This document shows positions 910 through 61,480 of a stretch of DNA of 64,000 nt, piece after piece. This DNA is from Amphiscolops sp. MND2022 (lineage: Eukaryota). The position numbers were made by a program, and so were the translations under genes. The stretch lies in the NCBI GenBank assembly GCA_964187785.1, contig OZ076409.1, positions 44,642,001 to 44,706,000 of the forward strand, given 5' to 3'. Below the pieces are notes generated by a model. It was given only the letters and a program-made list of their open reading frames with translations, was not told where the DNA came from and did no database searches. How positions within the stretch are numbered: the stretch's first letter is position 1; the number at the start of each line of letters is the position of its first letter.

Positions 910-1890
910 ATGGGTTGTATCCCTACGTGTTGGACCGACCGGACTCTTTGCTGGAGACTAGTTGCTGTGCTGGTATGAGCCTGTCTCAGTGCAATGGGCA
1001 CTGGATGTACAGTTCAACAGCAATATCTTGATGTCACCCAGTATTTTAAACGAAAGTGGACTGTTCAGCAGGATGAAGTGTCTGTAGTTGAAGACATAAT
1101 TTCGATGTGGCTGTCATACCTTCATTGGGATCGTTGCGGTAAGTTGAAGCAAGTGCTGGACTTGGTTGTCGTCATTACTGTTACCGGTACGTACGAGACT
1201 AACTTCGGTGATGAAGCTCCTACTGCATTAGATGTAGATACCTTGTCATCTAGTCTACACTTAGTGAGGAGTTGGTTTACACACTCGTTTGTGGGACAAA
1301 CACGCAAGAACTTATGAGGACTGTTACGGCTTTCGGAGTCAACCGATATGCTCGTTTCGAGGTTGTCCGACGGAGTGCGCGGAAAGCCCTGGGATCAACT
1401 GCTCAAGATAGGGCTCGATCAAACTTTGGAGCGTTGTGTCAGCATTTTGACAAATGACCTTAGTTCCTCTGTTGTGCATATGGTTGACGATTACAGGTCC
1501 GCAGTGTTGGCGCAGCTAAATGTTATGGAAGTCATCGCAACTAGTCCTGTCCGTATTTCAAGTAGTCCGAGAGTGAAGGGTTCAGCTGGTCTTTCCAAGA
1601 GAAAAGGAGCGCGCGTACAAGCTGCTCTGCAGATAACTACTGGAACGAGTGAAGTCGGCACCAGCGGGAAAACGGTTAAGAAAAGTGTGCGTCGTTCTGG
1701 CGCGAAAGGAAGAGGTCACACTTCTAGTACTCGCGGGCAGCGTGGAAGAAGGACAGGAGGGAAGCCGTGTAGTTCTAAGACTTTAGTCTTATCTAGTTGT
1801 GCTAGTAGCCCAACAACTCTTGGACAGAAGAAATCGACTACTAAAAGGAGGGCAAAATGGACGATTGCCGAATCATCAGATGAGTACTAG
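910..1890 (+). pseudogene. Antisense accessory ORF of Gypsy-A (~326 codons, two in-frame TGA), unknown product
   Basis: ATG 910, ORF 994-1317 and ORF 1348-1890 share one frame, broken only by TGA at 976 and 1315. C-terminus is K/R/S-rich and ends ESSDEY. Confidence 0.6.
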
Positions 1891-3486: not shown

Positions 3487-6400
3487 TTAGGCACGGGTGC
3501 CTCGCGAAGGTTGTATCAAGTAATTGGTATTTCGTGTAATTGGCTGGGATGTTTCGGCAGATGATGTGGTCGATGCCGCATCATTATTTGGCTGGGTACG
3601 TTGTTCAGGCTCGTGATCAGGAGACGGTATGTCTATTTCATCAGATTGATTTTCAGCTTCAGATTGGTGCGTACGGTCAGTGTGAATGGTCTCAGGTAGA
3701 GGGTTATGCAGAGGTGGTACATCGTGAACACTTTTATGCTCGTAATAGATTGTTCCATGCTCGGAGTCGATTGTGTGAGTTTCGTTTGTGTCTAGTTCCA
3801 CTGTGTTTTCAGCCGACGGTGGCGTTTCGAGTGCAGGCAGATTATCGTTGAATATTGACTGATCGTCAACCGCGTCGGAGTCACTATAGTGACGGGATGC
3901 ATCGTCGTGTAAATCCTCAATCGGATCATGTGGTACGAATGGGCGAAGCCGCATTCTATATACACACTGTGTTCTGAATGTACCGACTTTTCTGACAGTA
4001 TAATTCGATTGTGTCAAGACTTTGACAACTTTGTAAGGCCCTTCCCATTTGAAGGAATTGAAAGGGATTTTTTCGGATTGCTCGCTAATTTTGGGGTTCA
4101 GTAAAAAGACAAAGTCGTTTACTTTTGAGGGTGACGCTTTCGCTTTCCTGTCATAGTACGCCTTGTACTTGTGGAAAGCACGGATTATGTTGGCATGGGT
4201 TTCTTTAAACTTGGTGTTCAGATTGTCCACTAACGACTGTGTATCGGTGGCATTTCTCGGTGGGCTGAGGGGGTTGCCAAATTTTAGGTCCAGTGCGTTG
4301 TACGGTACACGGCCGTGGAAGACCTCAGTCGGTGAACATTTCAGAGTTTGATGGTAAGTTGTGTTGTGTGCCATCACAGCGAGATTGATGTATCGGTCCC
4401 ATTGTGGGCGGTCTACGGAGACGTTTATTTTCAGGATCTGTTTCAGGCGTTGATGTGATCTCTCGATCATCCCAATAGTTTGGGCGTGTTTAATCGTTGC
4501 GTGAGAGACTTTGATTCCAGCTTTGTTCATCAGTTCAGTTATGACCTGTGACGTGAAGACAGAACCTTTGTCGGTGATAATGTGCTTCGGTACGTATGCG
4601 TGTTTTGTGAAAATGTCTAGCGGAGACTCGACGACGGACTTTGTGTCAGGTTTGCGGATCGGTATCGCAAACAGGTAACGCGAAAAATAATCACATGCCA
4701 TCAGAATGTGTGAGTACCCATTAGATCGCGGTAACTCACCTACAAGATCAATTTCGAGAACATCTTCAGGACCGTTGCAGGGGTCATAAATTGGTTCGAG
4801 TGGAGGTATCAGAGTGTTCGGTTTTGCAGGTTTCGCTTTAATACATTCTTGGCGGTTGTTAACAAATATTTGGATTTTTCCGGTTAGGTTTGGGATGTAG
4901 TACCTTTTCCTTAGTTCACCTAACATTTTGGAAGCGCCAGGGTGTCCCTGCATGGGGTCGCCATGCATCGTCCTGATTATGGCTTCCGTAGTTTCTGGAG
5001 GAACTACAATTTGTCGGTAAGCTAGGTTTCCTACGTTGTCAAAAAACTGCCTGTACAACACGTTGTTGACTACTTTAGGTCTTTTACGGTTTTTGAAAAG
5101 TTTCTGGATAAAGGTACTTGCAAAGTTAACTTGGTTTGGAGGGGTTTCTTGCGCTGTAAGGATCCTAATTACCCGTTGAACGTCACTGTTTTCGCCTTGA
5201 GCCTTAACAATTTCTGAATCCCCTGAAAGGCATACCTGATTTACCATGTGAACCTGGTTCCGTTGGTAGAATCGAGTGAAGAAGAGTGTTGGGTCAGAGG
5301 GCGTTACAAATGGTTGAAGCTGGGTTTTGATGTCATCGATGCGTCTACGGTACTGTTCGTCGTCTTCGTGACACCATTGAGGGAACATCGCCAGGAGTGA
5401 CTGCTTTGTCGGGTTTGATGATGTTGTTGCGTCAGGCACATCCACCTCTTCTGGGATGTATTCTTCCTCTTCGTCATCCTGCTTGGGTGTTTTTGAAGCC
5501 AGATCAATTTCGACTTTGAAGACTGGTATCTCATCATGTAGTTTGAGGTGGATCCTGTCCTTCGGGTGGATGTCGATTCTAGACAGGTAGTCAGCAGCTG
5601 GATTTTCGACACCAGGTACATGGGCCAGGACGAAGCCGAATTGGAGGGCTTGGTCGCAGTAGTTCCACAATTTTGGTGGTATTCGTTTAGACTGGAAGAA
5701 TCTGGTGAGTGCCTTGTTATCAGTCATAACAATCGTTGGTTTCTTCACTCCCCACAGGATGTGGGCGAACTCGTCGAATGCGAAGTGCATGGCTAGGAAC
5801 TCCTTCGCGTACATTGTAAGTGACATCTGGCCCTCGGTGAACCTTTGAGATCCAAAGGCTACAGGCGCATAAGACTTCGTCGGTCCATCATTGGTTTCGG
5901 TGTAGTCTTCTATCAGGAGAACGTAGCCGGCTGCGTGTTCGCTAGCATCACACATTATCACCAGCTGTTTGTCAGGAAGTGGTAATCGCCTTGACATCTT
6001 GGCAGCGTTTGCTAAAATCTCATTGATGTCAAAGATCGCATCCTTGTGTATCTGGGTGAGTTCGTACTTGACATCCTTCTGCAACAACTTGTATAGAGGA
6101 ACCAGTTTCTCAGCTAGTCTCGGGATGTACTGGCGATAGAACTGTACGAATCCAATATACCGTTGTAGTGACTTCACGGATGTTGGCAGTTTGATGTTCT
6201 TCAGGAATTTGACGAGTTTGTCTTCGATTGGAGCGATGCCTTTGGTAGTGATGCTTCTGCCAAGGAATTCGATTACGGGATGGCCAAAGGCACACTTCGC
6301 CATTGACAGTTTCAGAGCGGCCTGTCTGATTTTGGTGAATACTGCTTCAATGTTGTTGACCAGCTCTTCGGCAGTGTTGGCGGCAATGCCGATATCGTCA

Positions 6401-8349
6401 ACGTATTGGGCGCATTTGTCTGCCTTGACCAAGGGGTCCAAGTACTCACGAACTGTACTGTTAAAGGCTGACAGGGACCGGTTTAGACCCTGAGCTAGTC
6501 TGAGGAAGGCGAAGGTCCTACTTCCGAAGTTGAACGCGAGCAACTGGACTGACTGTTCGTCCGCCATCTGGAGGCAATGGTATGCTTGCGAACAGTCCAA
6601 CTTGCAAAAAAAACGTTTGCCAGCCATGAGTTGAGCTGCATCGGCCATCGTTGTCACAGGGTGGTTGTGCTGGTTGTAATCATTCTTCAGTAGATGATTA
6701 ATTATTCTGAGATCGACAAGGGTTCTGAGTTTCCCATTTGGCTTGCGTTGTGCGAAGATGGGCGAAGAGTATTTGCTATACGGTAATGTAGTGATGATAA
6801 CGTAGTCTTGCATCAGTGCCAATTCTACCAATAAATCGTCCTTCAAATTTGTTGGTGTGGGCAAGCTTTGGGCGTAGACTGGTTCGTCGTGTTTGAGAGT
6901 CAACTTGATTTTGAATTCAGTGTTGATCCCAATGTCCAGTCTGTGTCTCGCGAAGATGTCGTGGTACTTGACCAATAATGCCTCAATCTCTTGCTTCTCA
7001 TGAGGGTTCAGTATTTATTGTTCCCATTTGAAGTTCGCCAGGGATTCTTGTCGTTGTTCTTCACTCGAAGTTGGGTCCAGTTTTTCGTCCGTCCTGAGTT
7101 TGAGGATCTCGTCGTAGATTCGTCTTTCAATTTTGTTTAGCTTCGACGGGTCGTCGCATGTCTCAGGGGTAGGGTACCATCGCCTATCAGTTTTCTCGTT
7201 TGGGTCCTGAAAGATATGGTTCAAAACTGCAGTAGTTTCGTCTGGGTATTGTGTGATCAGGTTGAGTTGGTGGTTTGTCACCGTTTGCAAGTTGTTCGCT
7301 TGTTTTGGGGTCATAATCTTGAATGACGCCACTGCTGTCCCCACATTGATCGTGATCTGGTAATCTAGTGGGTTGGTGATCTGCACGTGGGTGCGGCCCT
7401 CCCGGGTCTCGCTGAGGGCCGGAGATACCAGGAGGTGAGTACGTCGTTCGAAGGCGGGCAGTCCTTCAACGGTGCCAGTGATGTCCCCCAGACCACGTTC
7501 AATCACCACTGGGACGAACATTTGTTGGTTGGGCTGGATCACCATTTTCTGAGTTGTTTTCAGCTCGAGTAGCTTGTTTTTGAATTTCCCGTTGACTGAG
7601 CGTAGTTGGAGGGTGATGTCGGGAAATTTCACTATGTTGTTTGCTAAGTCGAGGGTGACTGAGTACTTCTTGAAGAAAGACATTTCGATGAGAACATTTC
7701 CCATCGTTGGGAGAACCATGAATGTTTCTTCGAAGACTTTGCCGCCAATGAATAAACGCAGTAATACCTGCTTTCTGACGGGGACGATGCTCCCATTGGC
7801 GATCTGGACTTTGAACTCTGGTTCGGGGAGTTCTTGGAGAAGGGCGGCTGGGTGTGCTGAGAGAATCCGCCTGAGTTCTACTTCTGACAGTGCGCTCCGG
7901 ATCGCGCCAGTGTCGAGGAGACCAAAATTTTCGTAAGCACGGAATTGGAGGGGTACATACAGCATTTTATCTTTTCGGTTGAGTTGCAATGTGGCACTAC
8001 TCAACTGTCGGATTTCGTATTGTGGTCTCTTCCTTGGGTTGTGAGTTTTGGAGGACGTAGTTTGTTTGTCATCATTTGGCCGTTTAGGTGGCGTGTCGTC
8101 TTGCCGCATTGGTTGTATGTTGTTGGCTTCGGTACTTCGGTTCATCTCTTTTGGTTTGATTGTGTAGTTGTCAGTGGAATGTCTTGTGATGACAAAGTTT
8201 GTAGTCTCTTTAGTATAGGTTGAAGGACGGGACTGCCACCCAGTGTAGTTCCCAGTATGTAGTCGAGTCTGAGGAGTAGTTTGTTTTTGTTGGTTCAGTA
8301 GCGCACTTTTGTAGGTTCGAGGAGGATGACGTGGCTTTAGAAGTTTTTT
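3487..8349 (-). pseudogene. pol: Gypsy-A pol (protease, RT, RNase H, integrase) with one premature stop
   Basis: Motifs LLDTGA, QYVDD, CDAS and ADYLSR, integrase H..GHPG with IDL/TDKG/IERSH, and WEGPY. ORFs 7015-8145 and 3487-6975 are in frame across a TAA at 7015-7017. The frame is open from 8343. A YNLR tail lies in a shifted frame near 3515. Confidence 0.93.
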
Positions 8350-9703
8350 GGGTCTTCTACGTCATCGTGTCGTTCAATCTCATCTATGTCGTTAATCATT
8401 TCCTCGCCAGTGTGGGACAGCTCATTGGTGGTGCATACTCTGTAGTTGTTTTGGGTTGATTGTCTGGGTTCTGGGTAGCTGGATTTGGTTGCTGGGATTT
8501 TTGGTTGGCGGTTTTGGCTTGTGCTTCTTCTCGCAGCCGTTTTCTGCATTCCGCCCACTTGTGTCCGTGTATGCCGCAATGACGGCATTGCCCGTCGAAC
8601 TTTCTCTTCGTCTCTCGGGTTTGTTGAGGTTGGGCGGTTGATGTCGGAGGTGTGGCTGCATTGGGTTGTGGTGCGCTTATCTGATTGAATGGTTGCGCAC
8701 TGGTTGTGTTTGGGATGAGCTGGGCATATTGACATCTGCGTTGCACAAATGTCCGGATCTCATCCATCGATGCGTCGTGTTTGCCTGCCATGGCCAGCTC
8801 GTTTTGCATTTGGACGGGGAGTTTGGCGAATAGAAATGTTTCTGTTAAGTCACTGGACTTGTCTCCAAATGCTTGTTTCGCCACCTTTTTGAACTTGTTG
8901 AGGAAGTCATTAAAGGTCTCGGCTGAAGGGTCGTAGCGCATCTGGTCAAACTTGTTTTTGGCCACTTCTTTCAAGTCTTCTTTTGCGTATTCCTTCTTGA
9001 AGTAACGCAAGACTTGGGCCAGTGTTGTCTGGTTTGTCATCTTCAGTGATTGCCAAAATTCAATGGCGTCGTCACGCAGCAGACTTTGGAAGTATGTCAG
9101 TTTCTGTTCTTCTGACAGTTTGTGCGGGTGTGGTAGAAGATGATTGAGCAGTAGATGCTCAAACTCATTATCTTTTTCCCGATTTCCTCTGAATAATGGG
9201 AGTTGGGTTTGAAGGATTTTCGGATGTTGTACTGTGTCCGTCATAGTGTCCCTCAGGTGGTGAATTTCAGTGACAATATCATCGAACTGGTGGGCGGGTG
9301 GTGGAGGGTATTGTGAAGTAGATTGTCGTGGTGGGTTCGGCAGAGGGTTAGTTGCTGAAACTCCTGTCACCATGTCGGAACGTGCACAGGTCTTGTCTGA
9401 CGCTGTGCTCTGATTGTTCCCTTCTCCACTATTGGAGGATAACTTTTCGGTTGATGCCAAAACTAATCCAGTAAGATCGCTAATCTGTTTATTCATTTCT
9501 GAGAAGCGTTGATCGATCGATCTTTGCTCTGAGTTGTTATTAGTACGAATAAGATTTCCATAGTCTAACTCATCGATTTGGTCTCTAGAGAGGACCTCAG
9601 GGACACTACATTCACTTTCTGTATCGCTACTTCTGTCATGTTTATCCATCCCGCTCATAAACACTGGGATAGAACTTCTTCCTTGGGAACGAGTATTGAC
9701 CAT
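8337..9703 (-). CDS. gag: Gypsy-A gag, with one probable frameshift near the 3' end
   Basis: Starts MVNTRSQ, has a capsid-like region and the zinc knuckle CRHCGIHGHKWAEC (CX2CX4HX4C). The acidic end DDVEDPKNF* is in the frame of ORF 8337-8735. Confidence 0.88.
8343..8349 (-). promoter_or_regulatory. -1 ribosomal frameshift slippery site A AAA AAC (gag-pol)
   Basis: - strand reads CCA AAA AAC TTC TAA at the gag end. The -1 frame is stop-free into the protease ORF at 8145. Confidence 0.75.
9361..9372 (-). promoter_or_regulatory. Primer binding site TGGTGACAGGAG, tRNA-Leu-like, inside the gag ORF
   Basis: Directly follows ...CCGACA. One mismatch to the complement of the metazoan tRNA-Leu(CAG) 3' end (TGGTGTCAGGAG, recalled from memory). 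Confidence 0.7.
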
Positions 9704-10340
9704 TGTAAAGAACAAACGGAGTTTTTAATGTTTTATTGAGTGTTGGTAGTAGTAGGTTGGAAACGTTGAATTTTGCAATATCAAGAACTAATGTGGTAAG
9801 CAACTGTACGTTATAACTACACAAAATCTACTGATGGTACTATATTTGCTGGTGTCAATTATGGCGACGTTGGTCACGTGACCACATCAATCAATCATAT
9901 CTCATTGCTCGTTCACACCTTGGTTGGTAATTGCGCAATTTTTGGCGTAGCACCGAAACAGAACGCAATTGCGTTGAATTGCGTTGCTATAGTTACATGA
10001 CTCAATATTTGGTATTAAATGTGGTTACACTAATAGCATCATATGAGCGACTGACTAATCTATATATTGAATACGGGACTAATAGTGTTGAAATGAATTC
10101 TAATGATGATATGTCATCCACATTACTTTACTACCAACTAAAAATGATGCGAATTTAGTTTACAGAATAAATGTATCAAATATACGAAAATGGGTGAATG
10201 AGGCAAGGTTATTTAGGGATTGCATTTGGCAAATTCGAGTTCGAGTTTTGTGATGTGGTTTGGTTCACCACATTGTCAATTTCCATTTGCTGTTTGCTGG
10301 TTTCTTCTTCATCTTTTAATATGTAGGGTGATTTCCTACA
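9373..10340 (-). repeat. 5' LTR of Gypsy-A containing the first ~110 gag codons
   Basis: - strand TGTAGG (10340) to CCGACA (9373). AATAAA at ~9732-9737, ATG at 9703. The outer end is inferred because no partner LTR is available. Confidence 0.65.
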
Positions 10341-10739
10341 TTGTTGTATGTCTTTTTCATGCGTCAGGCATGACAGCCTCTCTTGTTTTTATGAATTCAA
10401 TTACAGTGTTTATAGCATTTACGCATGATTTTTTCTCTGCACACATATTGAATAAGATTGGAACGTTTTTTTTTCGCAAAACAACGGTCTTTAATATAAC
10501 AGATCTGTGCTTGCAAAGACTTTCATATGTCACTTTTTTGTCAAAGTGCATCGCCCTTTTCGCGGAGTTACCTTTTCTAGTGGCTACTTAAAAACTTGAA
10601 CTCTTAAAAAACTCAGGAAAGACTCATAAAAATTCAAAGATCTTGATGTTTCATTGATATGTGCTGTAATCTAAAATCAACACTTTTATATTATTTCTCT
10701 CTCAAAATACAGTGATGTGAAGAAAGAATGCGACTTAGA

Positions 10740-11239
10740 ATGCAAAGAATTTTCTAATCTGATCCAAAATTGGAAATACATGTATTAAGATAGGAATATC
10801 AGACTTACACTTGGTGAACCTCCCACCAATATACATTTCCCAAATTTATCCAAAATTCAATTTCATCTTCGTTTTCGAGAGATTTGAGTGTATCTGCAAT
10901 GCAAAATTCATCAAAAAATATTTATTGGATCACTGATATTTCTCGAAAATTACCAATTTTAAATATTTTACTCCCAAAATCACATGTTTCGAAACATGTG
11001 ATTTTGGGAGTAAAATATTTAAAATAGGTAATTTTCGAGAAAATATCAGTGATCCAAAAAATTTTTGATAAATTTTGCCCTGCAGATACACTCAAATCTC
11101 TCGAAAACGAAGATGAAATTTGATTTTTGGTAAATTTGGGAAATGTATATTGGTGGGAGGTTCACCAAGTGTAAGTTTGAAATTCCTATCTTAATACATG
11201 TATTTCCAATTTCAGATCAGATTAGAAAACTCTTTGCAT
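10740..11239. repeat. ~500-bp spacerless inverted repeat (foldback-like)
   Basis: Two ~250-bp arms centred on cacatgtttc|gaaacatgtg (10990/10991), with scattered mismatches. Confidence 0.95.
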
Positions 11240-23062: not shown

Positions 23063-23080
23063 TATTTTTTGAATACTTCT

Positions 23081-26000
23081 TATGCGCGAAAATGATTAAA
23101 TAGATTTACGAGATGAACAAACTTAAATAATCTTGAGTTACGTTTGTTATCATTGAAATTTTAAGTACTTTTAGACATAACGAACAACTTAAGAATTCCC
23201 AACGAGGGGGGTGTTAAGGAACGGGCTCACCGGGTGTATCGATCTTTTGAAGAGAGCAGAGTCGTGGAACTTCAATTGCGGCCATTAGTTTCGTCTCATC
23301 TCATTGAAAGTATTCACAAATAGTGAGCAATCAAACACGCCGATTCATTGAATAATCAAAAGTCATTGAAGTCAAATAGTCATTGATGAAGTTTCATTGA
23401 CTCTCCCGCCTCGTTTTCCGGTATAGGAAAACTCATTCATGTAGATGGGGCATATCTTTTGGGGAGTGATTATGATCTTTGTGTTGTTTGTTGTCGATTG
23501 TTGGGTGTGAGAGTCTTATATGATGAGGTGATGTGACTTAGCAGGTGAGCTGGTTTGTGTGTTCTTCCTTGATGTGTTTTGAGGTAGCAACTCCTGACTT
23601 CACCATCTGGACCTCGAATAGCTCGTTCTACCAAACCAATTGGCCATTGACCTCTCGGGCTATTGTTTTGGAGTATCTAGACCACATCTCCTTCTTTCAA
23701 TTGGTCAAAAGTCTTGTGCCATTTCGACCTCGTTTGTAGTGTTGGTAGGTATTCCTTTGAAGCCGTCTCCAAAACTGTTCTAAACATTCTCGACAATGCT
23801 TCCAGATGCGTTTTGTTTGTTTCGAGTTCACTGCTGCTATTTCGAGTGATAAAGGTGGTTGTAGTACATATCCAATTAAAAAATGACTAAAAAAAATAAA
23901 AAAATCTTTGCAGTCTGATGAAACTGAGCTGAGGGGACGACTGTTGAGTATTCCCTCCACCTGACATATTACGGTGTGGAAGCACTCATCATTGAGTCGT
24001 TTTGATCCGACAATGCTGTATAAATTTCGCTTGCTCATTCCTATCAGGCGTTTCCAAACATCACCTTGATGAGGAGTTCCAGGAGGGATGAATCTCCAGT
24101 CGATTGAACGAGCACTTACACGGCGTGCAAGGTCTTGAAGTATGTTAGCTGCTCCCTGAAAATTCGTTCCATTATCGCTGTATATGACTTCTGGGTTCCC
24201 TCTCCGGCTGCAAAAACGGTCAATTGCCATGAGACACTTTTCAGTGCTTAAATCCGTGACAGGTTCCAAATGAACGGCCATGACAACTAGGCAGGTGATG
24301 AGGCAAATGTATCTTTGTATCGGTTTCTTACCACTGAATACTTGGTATGGACCGCAATAATCGATACCAACGTTCTTGAAGACTGCTGGTTTTGCAGAAG
24401 CGAACGCTTGGCAAGTCCGCCATTTTTGGCTGGCTCGGCAGTTGACGTTGTTGACGGCACGTGTGGCAATTGAAGGTTATTTTCTTCAGAACAACTGTGG
24501 TTTTGCTGCTGAATTGCTGCTGTAAAATAGAACGTAATTGTTCAACTCCAATGTGTCTTTGTTTTTCGTGCTTGTGTTTGATGAACAGATACACAATAGG
24601 AAGGCGTGTATCCAAAATAAAAGGAGTTTTCGAGTTTTTTGAAACTGGTGCATTTTGTAATTGCTCCTTGAACGTAGCGTAATTGCGTCGTCAAGGAATA
24701 GGCCGAAGTTGATTTTTTGACTTTTTGGGCTGACACTTCGTCTTTGCTGTAGATCTTTTGTTTCTTTTGAGAAAACTTCTTCCGCTGACCGCTTCAAAAG
24801 AAAGTTTTATGCTGTTGTGTTGATTTCTGCGGCTGTCTGCTGAATGTTCTTTATTTTGTTACGAACTACGAAGATGACTCGAGTTGTTGATAAAATTTTT
24901 GTCCACGACGAAAATCTTGAATAGTCGATCAATCTGGGTTCCGAAATGCTATTGCAGTAAAACCTGGTTAAATTCGGTAAAGGCTCTGTGGGAATAGGTA
25001 TGCTGGTTGGCTGTGTTGGCCAGTGTTCCTCAGTCAGAAGAAGGAAAGGGGGACCCTTGATCCAAGAAGAATCTTGAATTTTACTGGCGGGCAGTCCTCT
25101 AGTTCCTTCGTCTACCGGGTTTTCTTTTGTCGAAACATCCCTCCCTTCCGTTTTTCGGCTGTGTTCAAAGATTTCGTAATGGCGGTTGGCAATGAACATT
25201 TTTTGCTGTTCCTTGTTTCCATTGTATATCCAACCCAAAACGCTCGTGCTGTCGCTCCAGTGTACTGTTTGATCTATTTGTAAAGTTAGTTCTTTGTTAA
25301 GTTTTTCTCTGAGACGGCTGGCATGAACCAAACCTTGAAGTTCCAGCTTGGGGATCGTATGTTGTTTTATGGGAGCTACACGTGTTTTTCCGAGGATGAA
25401 AACTAATCTTGTTTTTCCATAAACATCTGTGATTCGTATATAGGCAGATAATGCTGTTGCTACTTTTGAGGCATCGCAGAAAATGTGAACTTGGACGTTC
25501 CTGCTTAGTGTTGATCCGATGTATCGTGGAAATTTGAAGTCTGCAAGTTGTGGCATATCTCTCAATGTTCTTGTTAAGTTCTGCTCTGCTGCTTCTTCTA
25601 ATGGTTTATCCCACATTTGACCATTTTTCCAAATGTCTTGTAGTTGAATATTCATTGTGATTGTGAAGGTTGATAATAAACCAAAGGGGTCGAAAATTTT
25701 TGAGATTAGGCTTAACGCTTTCCGCTGAGTCCAGACTGTTCCTTCGAAACAATCAAACTTGGGTATCTGTATTCCAGTTGAGTCTTCGAAAGGGCTCCAC
25801 TTGATACCTAGAATTCTTTCAGTGTTTTCGTGATGAAATAGTTTTTCAATCGGTTTTGCTAAAAGATCCTGAGGCAATTTCTGACAAAGGTAATTTCATT
25901 GCTACACCATTTCGTCAATATGAAGGAACCTTTTAGTAGGATCTTCGAATACTGCTTCGAATACTGCTTCTGATGCTGCTGGAAATTCAGTCTCGTGGTC

Positions 26001-29000
26001 TCGAGCAGTTTGTTGGAGTGCATAAATTACGCAAGTTGGTGAGTCTTTCGCTCCAAAAATATGCCTCTGACACTCGTAAACTTCTGGTTCTTCAAACTAG
26101 TTGTTTGTCCAAAGAAAACGAAGATATCGGCGATCTTGGGCTCGCACACCGACATGCATAAACATGCTTCCTATGTCGGCCATTAAAAGAACTGGTTTTT
26201 CGCGACATCTCAGAAGGATGCCAAGTAAGCTTCCCAACAAATCGGGTCCTCGAAGGAGTTGATCATTTAGGCAAACACCGTTCATTTTTGCTGCGGCGTT
26301 AGATATTCTTCTAACTTTTCCGGGCTTATTGGGGTTGACTAATCCATAATGAGGAAGTAACCATTTTGTTTCGTGATGTTCTTCAGGAGGAACTTTTCTG
26401 ATGTAGTCTTTCGTGATGTCACCTTCGATACCTGCTTCATAAGTAGTTTTTAGATCAGGTGTCTTGTTAAGGCATGCAACAAGAATGCAAGATGGCGTTC
26501 GGCGTAGAATCTGTTATTGTGAAGTTGGCTGTCGTCTCTCCACAACAAACCTGTTTCGTATCTACCATCAACTATGTTGCAAGTTTTTTGAAGTATTTCT
26601 TGAGCTCTTTTATCTTCTTGGTTGTCGTTGGCGTCAGTTTGGCATGTCCCGTATGAGTCTCTTTTCCACCAATTGAGAACTGCGTCGTACAAGTCTTCGT
26701 CTCTGCTTCGCACTGTTGACAGAAGAAACTTTCCATGGACGTTGCTATTGGATGGGGTCCGGCAATGGACCATCCCAGCTTGGTTTCCACGACTGTTGGT
26801 GCGTTCGGTGGACCTTCTTTGACACTCCTAGCGACTATTAGCGATTATAGATCGCATCCAATAAGAACTTCAACTTGAAGATCAGCGAGTGTTGTCAAGG
26901 TTATTTCATTTAGATGGGGGTATTTTCTGATGATGTCTGTTGGATTCTCTTCCAATTTTGGTAACTGAAAATCTTCAACTACCAGAATGTTTTGACATTT
27001 GAAACGTTCGGAATCGTTAGCATCGGAAATTTGAAATTGGACTGTCTTGGTAGAGTGGTTCTTTTGACTATTGAATCCTCTTATGATGACATCTCAAGTC
27101 TCCATGGGTTTTAACTCTAACATTTTCGCCAACTGGGGTGACATGAAGCTGCTAGTGCTCCCACTGTCCAATAGTGCATAGACAGTTTGCTTTTGTGATA
27201 GGCTGTGCACGGTAACCGGCACTACTTGAATAATGGCTGAACAGTTAACTTTTGTTGTGAAGACTTCGGCTTCATTGTTCGTTCTTGCCTGCTGGTTGTT
27301 GCAAAAGTTAACCGAGTTGGACTTAGGCGCTGTTTTCTCTCGGTGAAGAAGTGTGTTGTGTCGTTGGTTGCAATTGTTGAATCTGCATGTGGATTTTGAT
27401 ATACAATCTTTCAACAGGTGATTTTGGCTCAAGCAGTTCTAACAAAAACCTAGCGCTTTTACGTTGACATGTCTTTCTTCGGGAGACATCTTTTTGAATT
27501 TTTCGCATTTGAAAATCTGAGGCGAGCAGTCCTTCAAAGGACAAAAAAGTTCGGGGTGATTGTCTGCACATTGCAGTCGTTGTTTTGGAATTCTGAACAA
27601 AAAGTACCTGATGAGTGGCAGGGTGTTCAACGTTTTGTTGTTCAACTTGAAGTTGCTCGTATGCTTCGGCTATTGGTTGAATCCAGTCACTAAGTGTTGA
27701 CAGGTTTGGCTGTTCAATCTTTTCTTTAACTAAAAACTGTTGCCACTTCACTGCGTCCGGAAACGGCAATTTGTCTGTGGCGTGCTTCAAATTGGTTGTT
27801 GAGTATAAATCGGCAGTGAAATTATGAGCTTCGAAAACCCCTAATATCGTCTTGATGAAGAAGGAATCTTTGATGTACGTGTCAGGTCGATTGGGTATAG
27901 GGGGAAGGTGCTGTATCAATTGTTGGATCATTGTTCCAACAATCACTGTAGGTCTGCCAAAACGATGTTTCAGCTCGACAATAGCTTCTTCGTAATAATT
28001 GCCATCACATCCAAAAGATTGGATGACTTCATTGCACGGCCTTTGACTAAACCTTACAAGTATGCAATTTTTTTTACTGCTGCTCAGGGGGCTTGTCCAA
28101 TCATGAACTGAAAGCGACTGTTCCAGTCTGTCCACTTTGTCGGATCACCATCAAACGTATCCAAATTGATTTTGGGTAGAGCATTCCGGTACAAGTAGAA
28201 CTGTGAGTCATTCCGTTGTGAGACACCAATGTTACCAATACTTGGCACTGAAACTGTTGGTATTTCAGGTGCTGCTGATTGGTATGCTGAGGAAAAACTG
28301 GCTGCGTTGGCACTTGGTAGCGAAGCTGCATGGACTTCGACAACTGCTGGCCTAGGCTGAGAACCAGTTAGCTGTTGAGAATGATCACATCTATTGCTGA
28401 GTTCAGAATGTGTGGTGTCCGGATTGTCAAGAAATTAAACTGGATCCTGACAAGCAGTGGTAGTATTTGACTGAAACGTTCCCTGGGTTCCTCGATTTGT
28501 ACAGTGATCTGCATTCAATGTTGAATCTCCCGTGAACGTTACTTGGAATGGGTTTGGAACTCGCTTACGCGTCTCGCTCAATTCTAGTGCTTTAGCCCTC
28601 AATTCATCACTCTCAATACAAAATGTAGTCAATTTTTGCACTATATTGGCATGTTCCGATTCATCTGCATTTGCAATCATTGAGTATGTCAACTCTTCAA
28701 CTGTTGCTAGTTGTGTCACCACATCTTTCTGATGTTGCTCAACGAGACTGAAACTTTTCTGTTCAATACTTGCATGGAATGATTCTATTAACGCGTTGAG
28801 TCTACTTGTAGCAACTGATAGTTTAGCCCTCGTGACCATTTTAGGCACTGGGGTTTTTTGCTTTGAGCCCATTTTGCAGTTATTATTTGAATTGATCACT
28901 AGCTCTCATTTTGTACTGCTCGTATATGACGAACATCACGTCGGGGTCACCAATAATTATGCGGGAAATTGATTAAATAGATTTACGAGCTAAACAAACT

Positions 29001-29280
29001 TAAATAATCTTGAGTTACGGTTGGTATCATTGAAATTTTAAGTACTTTTAGACATAACGAACAACTTAAGAATTCCCAACGAGGGGTGTGCTAAGGAACG
29101 GGCTCACCGGGTGTATGGATCTTTTGAAGAGAGCAGAGTCGTGGAACTTCAATTGCGGTCATTAGTTTCGTCTCATCTCATTGAAAGTATTCACAAATAG
29201 TGAGCAATCAAACACGCCGATTCATTGAATAATCAAAAGTCATTGAAGTAAATATAGTCATTGATGAAGTTTCATTGACA
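23081..29280 (-). mobile_element. BEL/Pao LTR retrotransposon (BEL-1), both LTRs present, coding region decayed
   Basis: LTRs 23081-23402 and 28958-29280, TSD cttct, PPT 23403-23420. Fragments of gag with Zn knuckles, protease (LLDSGS), RT (LNDQLLRGPDL), Pao RNase H (FCDAS, TIPKLEL) and integrase (AVHLE, SDNGTNF). Many frameshifts and stops. Confidence 0.96.
28935..28952 (-). promoter_or_regulatory. 18-nt tRNA-Trp primer binding site of BEL-1
   Basis: TGGTGACCCCGACGTGAT, the known tRNA-Trp PBS as in avian leukosis viruses, 5 nt from the 5' LTR. Confidence 0.9.
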
Positions 29281-30018
29281 CTTCTAAAGTGCTAGTCCAA
29301 ACCATTTTTTATTCAAAACATTTACCCTAAAGTTTGGCATACAGTATGTAGATAAATTTTCGGTTTTAGAAGAATTCTACGCAGCTTATGGTCGTTATTA
29401 TTGTGCAGTGAATGTACGCACTGATCGAATATCGAAATGTAAATAGTAAGTTTTACCCAAAAAGGGTCGTTCCTTTTCCCAACTCGAGCATTGTTGGAGG
29501 AAACTTACACAAAGTGTACCACATAGAAGATGTATCGCGCAGTGAAGTTATAAATCAATTTTTAGCGTTTTCAACAAACGCTTTGCTGAATTTGCCTTGG
29601 TTCGTAATTTTGAAAAGGAAAACAAATTGGGTGGATGAAGAATTGGATAAACAGTAGAACTATGACCTATAAAACCGTGAGTTCTTTTTGGACCTGTGAA
29701 ATTCTTCCAAATACTTCCACATACGCGTTTTTACGTTTCAAATATTACAATAAAACAAAAATTTGAGCCTCTCTGTTTTCGTTCAGTTTTTGTTTGGACG
29801 AGATTTCAGTTTCTTGAACATTTTGCGAATTTTAATTTTTGAGCCCAAATCAGGTCACCGGTTTTTTGCGGTCTCTTGATTTTCTCTTGATTTCATATTT
29901 TAGGTGCTCATGCTGATCTGATTAATTAAAACCTGAATATGTTTTTGATCTCACCTAAATAAATAACTGAACACCTTAGACTGAATAGAAATCTGAATAG
30001 AAAACTGCTACGCTTCAG

Positions 30019-43294: not shown

Positions 43295-44268
43295 GTAAGT
43301 CTTTTTAATCGATTTGGCGCTTTTAATTTACTGCGTATTGCTAGTTTTTTTTCTGATAAGCGAATATACTTTTTCATTGAAAACCGTTATTTTATTACAA
43401 GCGGTAAATTTCAGACAAGACGCTATGAGCTGCGAAAACGTCATTACATTCGGTTATTCGTGAAATTAAAAATTTTTCTAAAAACTACACAAAACCCATG
43501 AACCATCATATTGCTTTATAATCCTAACAAATAAATTGAAAAATGAAAGGGAGAGAGGAAAATTGGTGTCATATTGGCAATTTGTACAATTTTATGGTTG
43601 ATTTGAGTAAAGCAACTTGAATGAAGAGTCGAATTGAGAAAGAGTGAACAAACTAGAAAAAAGGTAGAAATAGAAGTCAATGAAAGTTTGAGTTTCAGAG
43701 CATGAAGTTTTGGAGTTTTTACTGTCAACATATACCGGCCCCCTTGAACGGTCCCAACAGCTTGGTGCAGGTCCTGCAAACATACAGGGTACAAAGTAGC
43801 ATTTGTATGACTTAGTGAAAAAAGGCATTTTTTTGAAAAAAAAAAGAATTTATACTAAGCTTTGGTTAAGTTGAATAGTTGACACGACGGGTATCCATAC
43901 CAAGTTCCAATTGAAGAGCAGTAGAGACAAAAAACAAGACCCAGTACCCATAATATAACACAAATACAAAATAAACAAAAACGAAACGGCGTAACGAAGA
44001 AGGACGGGACTGGGTGTAAACGTTTTTGGAAGAACCAAAAAACAAGCTCATTTAAATAATGAAAAATGTTTTACAGGGAATTTATACAATTACTTTGTTT
44101 GATGAAAATCTGTTAATGATGTTGTTGAATGGTTTGGTTGCGATAAGGAGGTAAATGAAAACTGTATGTAGGATTGTTATCTTTATCTTTAGTTTTTATC
44201 TTCGGGTCTTTGTTGTTAACTTTGATTCTGATCCAATGCTGCAAGTTTCTTTTTCGTTGATGACTTTG

Positions 44269-47200
44269 TTACTTGTTGATTTCTTGGTTCTTTCCATGGG
44301 ATACTTCTGCCGGAAGAAATAATGATAGCCGATGGACTGGCCGCACGTATGATCCTCTTCGGGTCCGGATCTCAACAACGCGGGCGATTTGGTCATTCCC
44401 ATCAAAAACTTTGATGACTTTAGCCATCGGCCACATCATTGGTGACGTATTGTCATCCTTCAAGAAAACGATGTCTCCAATTTGTAGGTTTTCTTGTTCC
44501 GCTGTCCACTTAGTTCGCTGTTGAAGAGTTGTGAGATATTCTGAGGACCATCGTTTCCAGAAAAAATTCATTGCTTGCTGGCGTTGTTGGAATCTTCTGA
44601 TGAGTGTGAGGTCTTCTTTGTCGGGTGGGTCAGAGTCTGGAACTGTTAGCAGTGGTCGTCCAATTAGGAAGTGTGCAGGTGTTAGTGTTTGAAAGTCGTT
44701 TGGGTAATTGGATGGTGAAGTTAATGGACGAGAATTCATAATGGCTTCGATTTGTGTCAGTAATGTCGTTAATTCTTCTAGAGGTAGAGTTGTCTTGCCT
44801 GTGGTTTTCAGAAAGTGTCGTTTGAAAGATTTAACGGCTGCTTCCCAAAGACCACCGAAATGGGGTGAACGTGGTGGGGTTGTGAGCCATTGGATCTTGT
44901 GATGGGCAGTGAAAGATTCAAGGGACTCGGTAATTTTTTGTTCTGCTAACATCCGTTGTATTTCGAGTTCAGCGTGTGTTCCTGTAAAGGTGCGAGAATT
45001 GTCACTGTAGATGGCACTTGGTAGTCCGCGGCGAGCGAAAAAACGTTGTAGGGTAGAAATGCAGGCTTCTTTGGTGAGTGAGTTGACAAGTTCTAGATGG
45101 ACTGCTTTCGTTGAGAAACAGATGAAAATTGCGACGTAGGTCTTTGCTGTTTTTGTTGTGATTGGGCCGCAATAGTCTAGCCCGATGTGGCTAAAAGGTG
45201 TTGAAGGAGAAATACGTTCTTGCGGTAAGTCTCGCATTTGAGGTTGACGTTGACGGCTGTTGAAGCGTGCGCATTGGGGACATTTTCGAATGATGGATTG
45301 GATAAGGCGAGTCACGTTCGGTATCCAAACTGTTTGTCGTAGAGTTGACAATGTTAATTGCCAACCTCCGTGAAAGCATTGTAGGTGTGTTTCGCGGATT
45401 AGAGCTGCGTTGATAATCGATCGTCGGGGTACAATAATTGGGAATTTGAAATCCATATGATACCTGTTGCTGTTGGCGAGACGTCCACCAACTCGAAGGA
45501 TTTGTTTCTCTTCGTCAAAAAAGGGAGCAAGGGCCCTAAGTGTGCTTTTGCGGGGCAACCTTTTGTTTTGTTTGAGGACTTCAAATTCTGTGAGGTGCTG
45601 TTTTTGAAATGTTCGGAAAATTAGTAGTCTTGCTACTCCAATTTCGACGGCGGAAAGGGTGGCTGTCCCTTGCATGTTGTGTAATGCGTGTCTTTTTCTT
45701 CTTTCTTCTGTCGGTTTCTTGTTTTGTTTCACATTTGAAACAAACCTGAGGACAAAACCGAAAACCTTGACGAGCTTCTTGAAACTCGAGAATTTGTTGG
45801 CTGCAACAAGTATCGCATTGTCGGCATCAGTGTAATCTCTGGAGGTGCGATTCGACTGGTGTGATTGTGATGAGTTCTCCGGATGTGGCTGTGGTTCTTC
45901 TTCTTCTTCTTCTTCTTGTTCTTCTTCTTCTTCTTCTTTTTCTTCGTCTTCTTCTTCTTGTTCTTCTTCTTCTTCTTGATCATCTGCTTGTTCTTTCGGT
46001 TCTTCTTCTTCTGGTGCTTTTGCTGTTGCTGCTGTTTCTTCTTTGTTGTGGTTCAGGATTGCTTGTTTACGGACTGGCAGGTAAACAAGGCTTGGTTGTT
46101 TCTGGGTTGTGTCGTCGTGAGTGTTAATACTCACAAGTTTTCTGTAGTCAAGCTGAACAGAGTTGTTCAGCCTTTTAGCTTCTTTTAGACTTTCTTCTGG
46201 CAAAGCAATGTCGATTTGAGGCCACGCTGAAGCTGGCATGCGCAGCCACTCAGGTCCTTGCCACCACAGATGGTGACTTTGAAGTTTTCGAGGCGACATT
46301 CCTCTGCTGGCACAGTCAGCTGGATTGGATTCAGTGGGAACATGGTTCCAGTTTTCTGCCGGGACTGACTTTTGAATCTTCGCTACGCGATTAGCAACGA
46401 AGGTTTTCCAACGACTCGGATGATTTTTTATCCAAGCCAGTGTGATTGTAGAATCAGTCCAAGCGAAAACTTTGAGGTTGGGAAATCGTTCGTCATCCAA
46501 GGCAATTCTGATCGATTGAAAAAGTTGCGCTCCCAAAAGAGCTGCACAGAGCTCTAATCGAGGAACACAAATTGTTTTGATTGGTGCCACTCGTGTTTTA
46601 GCTACGAGAAGCTGGCTTTGAAAGTGTCCTTGGCTGACGGGTTGGCGAATATAGACAACTGCGGCGTAAGCAGTTGTAGAGGCGTCACAAAAGCAATGGA
46701 GTTGAAGTGGGTTTTTGGAAGGTTCATTCTTATCGAGAATGAATCTCGGGGTGTCGATATCTTCGATTGACTTTAGATCGCGACTGAGATGTTTGCATTG
46801 TTGTAAGAGGTTGTGATTCAATGGTTGATCCCAAGACAAATTATCCAACCAAAGTGCTTGAATGAACGACTTCAATTGGATGACAATTGGTGAAAGGAGA
46901 CCCAACGGGTCAAAGATGCGGGTGACTTTGGAGAGTATTTGTCGTTTCGTTTGTGGGGCTTTATCGGCCGGTTCCACGTTGAATGTGAAGATGTCTTGCT
47001 TCGGTTTCCAGACGACACCAGGAGTTTGGATGAAATACTCTTCAGACTCGATGTGTCTGGTGTCGGCTGATTCTCGATATGTTTCGGGAAGGCGTTCAAC
47101 GAGTGAAAGATCACTCGATGACCACTTGCGTAGATGGACACCAGCGTTAGCTAGGTGTTTGATGAGGGTATCTTGCAGTAGTTCAGCTTCTTCTTTGGAG

Positions 47201-49915
47201 GCGGTTCCGGTTAATAGATCGTCGACGTACATGTCCGATTTGAGCGCTAGGGCGGCGATGGGGTGCTGTGTTGTTTCGGCTAACTCGAACAAGGGTCGTA
47301 TGGCATGGAAACCAGCTGATGTCACACCGTAAGTATTTCGAGTCATGCGGTAATATTCTAGAGTAGATGATGGGAAATCATGATGATGTTTCTTTCCAAA
47401 GTATTCTGTGGAAATCTTTGTCTTCTTTGTCGAGAAGTACCTGGCGGTACATTTTGGCAGTGTCGGCTGACAAAGCCACCTTGTGAAATCTGAACCTGAT
47501 CAAGATCTCGAAGAGATCCCTTTGGATCTTCGGACCAAGCATGAGGTTATCGTTTAATGAGACTCCGGAGGTTGTTTTCGCCGAGGCGTCAAAAACCACA
47601 CGAAGTTTGGTTGTCGTGCTGGATTCCTTGAGAACACAGTGGTGTGGCAGGTAGAATGACTTGCTGGTTGCGATTGGAATTTCAGACTCCGGGATTTTCT
47701 CCATGTGTCCCAGATCCAAAAATTCCTTGATGAAGGCTGCGTATCTAGTATAGAGGCTCTCGTTTTTGGAAAGTCGGTAGAGGAGTGTTTCGAGGCGACG
47801 TTTTGCTTGCTGAAAAGAGTCACCAAGGGGTATGGCGTCTTCTTTGAAAGGTAGTTTGACAATGAATAGTCCATCTTCATTCCGGGTTGTGGTTAGTTGA
47901 AAGTGTTGTTCGCATGCTTGTTCTTCTTTAGTGAAATGATGGCTTTGAGGAAGATCTTCAATCTCCCAAAACTTCTTGAGGGTTTCTTCTTCGGGAATCG
48001 AATTCAATGAGCTAAGGCAGGTTGTGAGGGTTTGAATTGACACTGAAGGCGAACCTCCAATGACAACCCACCCAAACAACGAATCACGGTATGTTACATT
48101 GTTGTTTTCCTTGATCCGTGCATCCAACATGATGGTTTCATAAAGTTCAGCTCCAATGAGCATGTTGATTCCAGAAGGTGTGTTGAATGTCGGATCGGCG
48201 AGCTTGAGGTTTGGAAGATGTTTGAAAGACGAAGTGGAAACCTTGCATGAGGGCAAGATGTTGGTGAGCTTTGACATTACAAAGGCTCTCACTGGAATAG
48301 CTGCTGCTCTTTTCGGGGTGATAAGGAAGTCTGTGGTTCCGCGATGTTGTAGCTCATCCTTGGCGCCCAGACCAAAGATGCGCACTTGTTGTTTTTTCAC
48401 TGGAAGACCTAGTCGTGTGACTAGATTCTCAGTGATGAGGTTACTTTGGGAACCTGAATCGAGAAGTGCTCGGCAAAGTGTGGTTTCACCGTTTACTAAG
48501 ATGGGTATCATGGCTGTTTGCAAGAAGACTGTTCCGGTTGTTTGAGGAGAAAGCGAAGTAGCTGTGAACTGTTCTGGTGGCGGTGATTCCGTATTAGTTG
48601 TTTTTTCTGATTCATTGTGCCGATTGTTATCCGCAACTGTACTGTTGACAGAACGTGTTTGTCGTGGTGATTGTAGATGAAGTAGAGTGTTGTGCTTCAG
48701 GTTGCAATTTTTACAGGTCGATCCTCTGCATTCTTGTTGTCGGTGACCTGCGCGCAAGCAGTTGAAGCAAAGTTTCTTCATTTTCACGAATTCAGCTCGA
48801 TTTGGGACTGAAAGTTGCTTGAATTTTGGGCAGAGATGTAATTTGTGAGTGCCATTGCAACACTCGCAATTGATTTCGTTAGTCGTCGTATTGGTATTGT
48901 AATTCCGTTGTGAGGAGTGCGACTGTTGGTTGTTGTTTTGACGAGTTGTAAAGCGATGCTGTGATGAAATAGTTGGCGCTGAGAGTGTTGATGCTTCTAG
49001 AGCCAAGCATCGGGTTTCCAGGAATTTTTTCAAGTCGTTGTAAGTTTGAGGATCCGTTCCAGGCGTTGAGAGCTCCCAAAACTTCCTCGTATCAGCAGGG
49101 AGTTTTTCGGTGACGAGGTATACAAGAAAGATATCTTGCTGGTCGACTGGTTGACCCATGTTCTCCAGGGCCAATCGATGTTCTTCCACGGTTTCTACAA
49201 GTTGACGAAGATCTTTAGCGGTTTCGTTGGTAAGCTGTTTCTGTGTAGATATGGCATGTACATGGGCGCGCAAGATCATGCGGTTGTTTTGGTAGCGGTC
49301 TCGCAACATCTTCATGGCGACAGAGTAATTAGCGTCAGTGATTGTTACCGATGCTAGAAGCTTTGCTGCATCGCCTTTCAAAGATGCTTTGAGATACTGT
49401 AGCTTCTGGCTGTTCTGCAGGGTGCCGTTGTTGTGAACTGCTCCAGTGAACAAGTCGAAGAATAAGGTCCACGAGAGATAATCTCCTGAAAAGGTTGGCA
49501 GATCCAATTTTGGCAACTTCGCTGTAGTTAATGGGGGTGTGCTTCTTGTAATTGTTGATGATGTTGATGTTGTTCCACGTACCGCTGGTGTGATGCTTTT
49601 GATGAATCGGTCTATCTGGTCTAGCTGTTGAACTAGTTTATCGTCAAACTCCTCAGATTGCAGGATGTCGGTTTCCAAGACTTCTTCGTTGTCGAATTTT
49701 GATTGAATTTGTAGATTGAGGTCGTTTAGGAAGGTTTGTTTTCTTGAGAGATTTTTGTGTAGTTGTTCGAGCCGAATAACTGCATCGGCGATGCTTACAG
49801 AGCGCGTTGGCAGAATTAGGGATTCTGCTTCTGTCCAGTATTTAGTGGCAACTGACTTGTGGGAAGCACGGCTTTTCTTTTGCATTTCAATCTCTGTCAT
49901 TTTGGTTTTGATCAC
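44269..49915 (-). pseudogene. BEL-2 gag-pol polyprotein split by a single frameshift in RT
   Basis: KLPKLDLPTFSGD, three Cys-His knuckles, LLDSGS, KLRVVFDAS, YVDD, FCDAS, VPRLEL, AVHLE, SDN, GGLWE. ORFs 47378-49915 and 44269-47346 are out of frame. Confidence 0.95.
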
Positions 49916-50092
49916 GTAAATTTTTTGTTGCTGTTTCGTAGCTCTTTTCCTTACTTGGCTTAACTTTACTTGACGTTACTTTGAACTTTGAGCTGGTCTT
50001 CACTTTAAATACTTTGTGAGAATCTTGATATCTTTGAAGAGTGGTGATTATTGCTTTAAATTACTTTGAATTTGCTGTTCCAAATTTCGAAG

Positions 50093-50270
50093 ACTGACGA
50101 AGACTGAATCGAATTGCCTTTAATTGGTCTTTACAAGCTTTGAATCTTTGAATACTGATGAAGACTGCTTTGAGTCACTTTGAATTTCTCTTTACAAACT
50201 TTGAATCTTTGAAAATTGACGAAGATTGCTTTGATTTACTTTGAGGTTCCCTTTAAAAACTTTGGATGCT
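50093..50270. repeat. ~60-bp tandem repeat x3 in the BEL-2 5' leader
   Basis: actgacgaagactg...tttacaa.ctttgaatctttgaa repeated, with further ctttga motifs nearby. Confidence 0.75.
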
Positions 50271-50925
50271 TCGATTTTTCAAGCTTTGGATGCTTGGGAA
50301 TTTCTTGAACTTTGAAATATTTCGTATGCAGTGGAACGTATCCAGATTGACGTTATAGCTTTGAAACTTTGAATGGGGAAAAAATTTTTCCGAAAGCTTG
50401 TTTTTTTGTTTTTTGAAAGGTTGGGGGGTTTAAATAAGCTTGTTCTGAAAGTAATTGGCAAGCTCATTTTGTCAGTAAAGCATCGATTTTTTGTTGAATG
50501 AAAGTTGTTTTCAATGGCCACCAAAAAATGGTTTGAGTAAAGCAACTTGAATGAAGAGTCGAATTGAGAAAGAGTGAACAAACTAGAAAAACGGTAGAAA
50601 TAGAAGTCAATGAAAGTTTGAGTTTCAGAGCATGAAGTTTTGGAGTTTTTACTGTCAACAATGGTCACTTCAACCGGATTGAAAAACAAGTGAACGAGAA
50701 GACACTATAAAGTGTCAAAAAAATTGTCTCAATTGTACTTAGATAAGTATTTTTCGGCACGCATCCATGAGGATGTTAGAGGGTGTCCGTTCACTAAAAA
50801 AAGCGTTGACGCAGAAATCGAATAGTGCTGTGCACTAACCAGAATCATCTCTGATTGGTTGTAATTCAAAACAAGACTAATTTCAGAAAAAGTGTGCTGA
50901 TTAATTGCGTGATTTACTGGCAACT

Positions 50926-55321: not shown

Positions 55322-55620
55322 ACATGATTTGCCCTGAGGAGTTAAGTGCGCTACAAAACAAAGAAAAATTTGGAAAATACGACACTACGATATGATTACA
55401 CTTGGATATGAGAAATTAAAAGACCAATAATTTTTATCACATTTTCTCAAAACAACACAATCGAATCGCCCTAGAAGAATTTAGAATTCTATCAAATGTT
55501 GAATAAGGTGTGGTTTTCACTGTATCTCTCAAGCAAAATTGTATGCCAAATTCACAGCCGGGTTTTGTTCAGACTGTTTTTTTGTTTGAAAACGTTTGTC
55601 ACATACTGTAACGACCAGCG
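55322..55620. repeat. Left copy of the ~295-bp flank duplication around Gypsy-B
   Basis: acatgatttgccctgagg...catactgtaacgac.agcg recurs at 61187-61479. Confidence 0.95.
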
Positions 55621-61185: not shown

Positions 61186-61186
61186 C

Positions 61187-61480
61187 ACATGATTTGCCCT
61201 GAGGAGTTAAGTGCGCTACAAAACAAAAATTTGGAAAATACGACACTACGATATGATTACACTTGGATATGAGAAATTAAAAGACCTTTAATTTTCATCA
61301 CATTTTCTCAAAACAACACAATCGAATCGCCCTAGAAGAATTTAGAATTCTATCAAATGTTGAATAAGGTCTGGTTTTCACTGTATCTCAAGCAAAATTG
61401 TATGCCAAATTCACAGCCGGGTTTTGTTCAGACTGTTTTTTTGTTTGAAAAAGTTTGTCACATACTGTAACGACAAGCGT
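61187..61480. repeat. Right copy of the ~295-bp flank duplication
   Basis: Matches 55322-55621 with about six substitutions and two small indels by eye. Confidence 0.95.

Follow-up and report, generated by a model that had tools for sequence, protein, structure and literature searches.

The gag reading frame of a gypsy-type retrotransposon clade opens inside the LTR and runs through the likely primer binding site

The minus-strand element at 3487-9703 of our window (the whole 64,000-nucleotide stretch of DNA analysed here) is, on sequence grounds, a decayed Ty3/gypsy LTR retrotransposon with gag and pol. Its gag frame opens about 110 codons within the LTR and continues past the end of the LTR and across the likely primer binding site (PBS), as originally predicted. 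It is well supported that gag in the clade of this element has 103-118 codons (about 189 in one relative) inside the LTR, including a predicted coiled coil. A gag frame that opens in the LTR appears, from the protein sequences compared, to be typical of a large clade of animal gypsy-type elements. U5 is usually treated as non-coding, and annotation tools seek gag after the PBS.

The body of the element consists of the following parts.

3487-8361, minus strand: pol, in the order protease, reverse transcriptase (RT), RNase H, integrase, with an in-frame stop at 7015-7017
8343-8349, minus strand: AAAAAAC slippery heptamer, preceding the gag stop of the family
8396-9703, minus strand: gag frame of this copy, 435 codons
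8546-8587, minus strand: CCHC zinc knuckle, seen in the translation (zf-CCHC is detected in relatives)
8693-9217, minus strand: predicted capsid domain, codons about 163-337

Pol contains the Pfam domains RVT_1, RT_RNaseH, Integrase_H2C2 and rve in this order, with a DTG protease motif upstream of RT, and the closest solved sequence is Ty3-G Gag-Pol (E 5e-42). Membership in Ty1/copia (Pseudoviridae) was rejected, since the integrase lies 3' of RNase H and not upstream of RT. Towards its 3' end the gag of this copy is disrupted: it leaves the family frame and lacks the second zinc-knuckle region of its relatives. The best row for the capsid model in VIA-align is the Arc capsid 7r23 (Z 9.9, rmsd 5.2, 143 aligned), and the top rows that follow are all capsids too, other Arc/dArc and retroviral ones. 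Foldseek returned no match for the Gag model at E <= 0.001. Pol is in the -1 frame relative to gag, and gag-pol expression would proceed through a -1 frameshift at AAAAAAC. The order of pol, the retroviral-type capsid with CCHC and an LTR ending in CA (the last indirectly) are those of Metaviridae.

Within the 64-kb window we found no second LTR of this element. Downstream of pol there is a purine-rich, polypurine-tract-like stretch (2331-2320, minus strand), after which neither LTR-like sequence nor a match to the 5' LTR follows. The element may extend past the window edge. Also downstream of pol and antisense to it lie two adjacent frames, 979-1317 and 1318-1890 (plus strand), separated by one stop. 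Neither matches a Pfam family, and the frame 1318-1887 has no usable ESM Atlas match. These frames may belong to the element, which would put its 3' LTR outside the window. Scans for a Gag pattern in viral, metagenome and prokaryote-genome contigs turned up no relative. Eight metagenome-contig loci with the junction motif have no Gag or Pol similarity at a meaningful E-value and were treated as chance.

The LTR of this copy and its junction with the PBS are laid out as follows.

9738-10375, minus strand: upstream LTR (U3/R); candidate TGT starts include 9997, 10029 and 10375
9787-9815, minus strand: candidate core promoter, a motif guess (TATAA at 9815-9811, TTAGT at 9791-9787)
9732-9737, minus strand: AATAAA, likely polyadenylation signal in R, the sole AATAAA in 10060-9690
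9707-9717, minus strand: GT-rich stretch, candidate downstream polyadenylation element and U5 start
9701-9703, minus strand: likely gag start codon, with A at -3 and G at +4
9373-9703, minus strand: LTR-coded beginning of gag, made up of codons 1-110 and the first base, A, of codon 111, delimited by the open frame and a break in homology
9434-9535, minus strand: predicted long helix, codons 57-90, entirely within the LTR, likely a coiled coil
9373-9376, minus strand: GACA at the LTR 3' end, the integrase att site, in which GAC codes for Asp110 and the final A begins Met111
9360-9372, minus strand: likely PBS, abutting the LTR without a spacer and read as MVTGV

The frame that opens at 9703 has no stop through GACA and the adjoining TGGTGACAGGAGT (9373/9372). 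On the minus strand the junction reads CGTTCCGACA followed directly by TGGTGACAGGAG, with CA at 9374-9373 and TGG from 9372. TGG begins 331 nt after the A of the ATG, and the junction peptide is ARSD-MVTGV. Between the ATG and the junction the gag frame contains 0 stops, compared to 4 and 13 in the other two frames. The minus strand has no ATG between 9886 and 9704, and the AATAAA at 9737-9732 ends 28 nt before the gag ATG. The AATAAA, the ATG, the CA end, the TGG, the distance of 331 nt and the peptide ARSD-MVTGV are thus where the original prediction had placed them. The LTR-coded gag segment likely makes up nearly all of U5, a label based here on the AATAAA and the GT-rich stretch and not on mapped RNA ends. 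A GT-rich stretch also serves to place the start of U5 in PMC3601003. The CA/TGG motif by itself is weak evidence of an LTR end, because the two strands of the window together contain 83 copies of CATGG.

We located the LTR end from translated gene calls in protein databases instead of paired-LTR DNA. If the LTR ends at GACA, then 3' and solo LTRs should be called as short proteins that match up to Asp110, continue with an ANN codon and then run into unrelated DNA. There are 92 short proteins (60-193 residues) that match residues 1-110. Of these, 58 reach residue 110 and continue as something other than Gag, while 10 run into M/IVTG. The other 24 are not aligned as far as residue 110 (early stops, frame changes; one does reach MVTG). 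The residue after Asp110 is ANN-encodable (S, K, R, T, N or I) in all 58 cases, against a background of 0.424 (p = 2e-22). The next four tail residues are at background (22/57, 22/55, 25/55 and 23/53 for +2 to +5). Only 1 of 1035 tail pairs is at least 50% alike, and the median tail beyond the LTR frame is 33 residues long.

The same break is found elsewhere in the clade. For a subfamily that is about 38% identical, 118 of the best 120 of 358 matches break at the same Asp. The next residue is of the ANN type in 116 of these 118; the two tails that do not fit are one with its anchor shifted by one residue and one with Tyr. Similar tail pairs are again rare (5/6555). Three short members of another cluster (P0263, P0264 and P0271) break likewise at the LTR end, and P0276, from a cluster about 40% identical, shows the same pattern. 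Because homology stops at Asp110 plus an A and unrelated tails follow, these gene calls identify GACA at 9373 as the end of the LTR, and the short proteins as 3' or solo LTRs read into flanking DNA.

This result bears on a competing placement of the LTR end just before the ATG (TTTACA at 9704), in which CA/TGG at 9373 would be a chance motif in gag. In its favor, TGTAA (9997 or 10029) would pair with TTACA as a short, perfectly inverted repeat, a TGG lies one base further on, and CATGG is a common sequence in the window. Yet with an end at 9704, 3' and solo LTRs would hold no gag codons, whereas 58 plus 118 short proteins carry the segment to Asp110 and then have unrelated tails. The break at Asp110 effectively refutes this placement, and we give it next to no credence. 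An LTR end upstream of 9703, which would have undone the original prediction, is therefore contradicted by the tails (58/58 and 116/118).

The tails also carry a trace of the insertion sites. In the flank bases deduced from 175 tails, base 2 is a pyrimidine in 64 of 102 cases, base 3 is G or C in 60% and base 4 is a purine in 70%; at later flank positions the values are 38-48% and 42-56%. The bias is symmetric about base 3 (N-Y-S-R-N). It fits a 5-bp integrase target site and suggests a weak preference. In one protein, P0294, the LTR-coded frame reaches the usual Asp and then, still in frame, enters the LTR-coded start of a sister family's Gag, so that two helices stand in tandem; it is likely one LTR inserted in another. 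The test of ANN residues can locate LTR ends from protein databases without DNA.

The open frame before the junction is a property of the clade. Among 120 Gags listed, we counted 37 clusters with at least 5 members. An open frame precedes the junction in 34 of the 37 clusters, with at least 103 codons in 31, and 3 clusters start downstream of the junction. Not one of the 37 starts at the junction MVTG, although 6 entries among the 120 (1-2 members each) begin at this motif or four residues before it. Met1 is aligned across subfamilies. Even subfamilies with identities as low as 30-38% maintain the frame, and where its length differs the changes are in frame. On the internal branches of 18 near families the segment has undergone about 355 amino-acid changes, and neutral change would have added 18-22 stops, an argument that is partly circular because the proteins were found through having open frames.

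The segment also has a predicted structure. AlphaFold2 places a helix at residues 57-90 (pLDDT 88-93 across residues 61-80). Heptad positions 63, 67, 70, 74, 77, 80, 81 and 84 are hydrophobic in 10-12 of 12 diverse Gags, and this pattern is kept at only 30% identity. Residues 1-56 are predicted to be disordered and are 20% identical between subfamilies. By hand count the LTR-coded segment is mildly acidic (18 D/E vs 12 K/R). The acidic, coiled N-terminal extension that had been proposed from the sequence is supported by this composition and by the predicted, conserved heptad helix. Pfam names nothing in residues 1-110, and a stonustoxin-helical match at residues 137-187 scored under the threshold and was interpreted as that of a generic helix. 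For the LTR-coded segment, ESM Atlas holds nothing at 0.9 or above; the best score (0.84) is a lead only.

Eight AUGs lie upstream of the junction AUG, four of them out of frame. Together with the lack of an ATG between 9886 and 9704, the cluster starts, the changes on the internal branches and the conserved heptad helix, these upstream AUGs make it likely that the LTR-coded part is translated.

The likely PBS is read as codons directly after the LTR end. It matches the 3' probe of tRNA-Leu(CAG), a human and not a host tRNA, at 12 of 13 nt and diverges afterwards. The sequence of this probe was taken from PMC3413118. The 64-kb window contains 0 tRNA genes. From this match the PBS is likely of the Leu type. 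We also searched the element strand from 13000 to 9374 for an exact complement of the first 7, 8, 9 or 11 bases of the PBS and found none. In the Tf1/sushi group, which is self-priming, the PBS is complementary to the element's own 5' RNA end. Self-priming of this kind was rejected, since 13000-9374 contains no exact complement to these PBS bases.

The junction leaves a conspicuous motif in the protein. Across 12 diverse Gags (all under 70% identical) DMVTG is 97% identical, compared to 15% and 24% in the flanking linkers and 65% in the capsid. A DMVTG-like motif lies more than 30 residues from the start in 87 of the 120 listed Gags (a regex matched 88, one of them spuriously). The remaining entries include 23 fragments that start downstream, the 6 that start at or beside MVTG, and 3 without the motif. 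D/N/H-MVTG is retained in relatives with 30% capsid identity, at 114 and 189 residues from the start in P0506 and P0544. The codons for D, N and H at the motif are all compatible with an ACA end. In the AlphaFold2 model the motif sits in a low-confidence linker. DMVTG is likely the footprint of the att and PBS DNA signals in a disordered linker. It had been proposed that the att site and the PBS are also constrained as codons. The coupling seems to work mainly in one direction: the DNA signals would constrain the peptide, and the codon side likely needs just an open frame.

Other elements in the window are arranged differently. In a second gypsy element (55322-61480, minus strand) gag apparently begins at the ATG of the LTR/PBS junction (60998), and there is an in-frame stop 19 codons upstream of this position. 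In its other LTR copy (55322-55815) the halves are swapped compared with 60999-61480, an order that a tandem or a circular junction would give. Two BEL/Pao elements (43599-50660 and 23080-29282, minus strand) have paired LTRs, about 132 bp long in the one and 326 bp in the other, with PBS-like sites preceding their coding frames; the pol frame of the former also contains a long insert rich in Glu. BEL/Pao elements belong to animal genomes, and their presence here suggests an animal host. Hence a gag start in the LTR is not a rule of this genome. The window further contains a MITE-like 500-bp near-palindrome at 10740-11239 (93% self-complementary), about 1 kb upstream of the element, and a tandem duplication of about 1.1 kb at 50941-52846 (88-94% identity).

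Two other readings concern the start of translation. Gag might start at the junction AUG only, with the open frame in U5 untranslated or incidental. The second gypsy element appears to start its gag in just this way, and the N-terminal 56 residues of our segment are poorly conserved. Yet the composition of the segment gives a 110-codon open frame a chance of only about 7e-4, and still even subfamilies with identities as low as 30-38% retain the frame, with in-frame length changes. At 30% identity the heptad pattern persists, and MVTG is the starting point of none of the 37 multi-member clusters. We regard a start at the junction alone as very improbable, and the original prediction, which depended on a conserved U5 frame and on a start ahead of the junction, withstands this comparison.

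Somewhat less improbable, but still unlikely, is the production of two Gag forms: a long one from 9703, and a short one without the coil that starts at the junction AUG on an internal transcript or a spliced one. In nearly all relatives the junction AUG shares the gag frame and has a good context (G at -3, G at +4), and 60998 appears to provide a gag start at an A/TGG junction in a different gypsy element of the same window. There is also a precedent in Ty1 p22, which is made from internal RNA (PMC4551931). However, the att site and the PBS force an AUG at this place, so that no translational role is needed for it; that the AUG is in frame is a 1-in-3 event that was then inherited. Leaky scanning is unlikely, as a ribosome would first have to pass eight AUGs, of which four are out of frame.

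We consider it probable that Gag starts at the first AUG (9703) and is read through the LTR end and the PBS, with the predicted coil ahead of the capsid. Transcription would start near 9790, and a scanning ribosome would find no AUG before 9703. With the guessed promoter at 9815-9787 the leader would be about 85 nt long. The AATAAA and the GT-rich stretch (9717-9707) would place the border between R and U5 no more than about 20 nt ahead of the ATG, leaving a U5 of about 330-350 nt that is almost wholly coding. RNA processing would skip the AATAAA of the 5' LTR and use that of the 3' LTR, and the coding segment would correspond to U5. U5 would then be read once, from the 5' LTR, and be cut off at the 3' end of the RNA; strong-stop transfer would restore it in both LTRs, with a minus strong-stop DNA of roughly 400 nt. 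Folding of the 5' RNA gives no sign of a structure that would hide the 5' poly(A) signal, since shuffled sequences fold just as well (z 0.12 and 0.27).

The unspaced CA/TGG would give blunt cDNA ends. The att site and the PBS would fix about 15 nt in the disordered linker between coil and capsid, with DMVTG as a by-product. The coil is predicted to aid oligomerisation or localisation of Gag prior to capsid assembly. Each intact 3' or solo LTR would carry a 110-codon frame fused to flanking DNA, which we see as open frames. The arrangement may have arisen from an ancestor that started at the junction AUG and whose U5 was later overprinted, or the LTR end and the PBS may have moved into an existing gag.

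The layout has consequences for annotation and for the host genome. Gags of this clade would be annotated about 110 residues short, and solo LTRs would be overlooked as a source of open frames. Each new copy rebuilds at both of its ends the part of the LTR in which the whole predicted folded segment lies. A solo LTR would therefore always leave behind a promoter and a start codon, and with them a predicted oligomerisation helix joined to random host sequence. In two subfamilies we count such fusions of the LTR frame with flanking DNA at no fewer than 176 distinct sites. They form a countable set in which to ask whether LTR fragments act against the element they come from or give rise to new genes. 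In one reading, which we think unlikely, the LTR would be a mini-gene complete in itself: solo and 3' LTRs that are transcribed past the poly(A) signal would make a coil-only Gag fragment with a random host tail. Bound to full-length Gag, this fragment would act as a dominant-negative brake on copy number, and each insertion would seed new host genes; if true, the brake by the coil fragment would strengthen as solo LTRs accumulate.

The closest known arrangement is that of Ty1, in which Gag starts within the LTR, the overlap is about a dozen codons and the PBS abuts the LTR. Our element resembles Ty1 of Saccharomyces cerevisiae (Pseudoviridae) in having the PBS inside the gag frame, without being a member of Ty1/copia. 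The overlap here is much longer than in Ty1 (103-118 codons, or about 189 in one relative) and places a predicted helical domain in the LTR. Ty1 has an initiator-Met PBS and a +1 gag-pol frame, whereas here we find a Leu-like PBS and a -1 frame. Furthermore, the integrase follows RT/RNase H, as is typical for gypsy. PMC4974528 describes the PBS of Ty1 as inside GAG, in contrast to Ty3. PMC4551931 describes p22 as an inhibitory Gag fragment that Ty1 produces from internal RNA.

With Metaviridae of the Ty3 and Cer1 type the element shares gag-pol, the order protease-RT-RNase H-integrase, a capsid with CCHC, the CA end, the AATAAA and the GT-rich stretch. It differs from Ty3 in having the PBS inside gag; in PMC4974528 the PBS of Ty3 is not described as lying inside GAG. 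For Cer1, PMC10309623 gives 5' UTR positions at nt 957 and 1175, past its 492-bp LTR. Here, unlike in Cer1, no leader separates the LTR from gag. Passages of PMC4202319, PMC7175516, PMC5408684 and PMC7264820 contain no layout in which gag starts in the LTR. A narrow exact-phrase search of open-access text, without Repbase, GyDB and subscription papers, returned no paper on a gypsy gag that starts in the LTR, which is weak evidence.

The capsid model aligns best to Arc, and in this the element resembles Arc, dArc and PEG10. These three are domesticated gypsy Gags, and in Arc and PEG10 a coiled coil at the N-terminus precedes the capsid. In contrast to our element they are host genes without LTRs, and for the coil itself we found no homology. 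Taken together, the layout is a long, structured gypsy version of the Ty1 arrangement: a strong variant and not a new mechanism.
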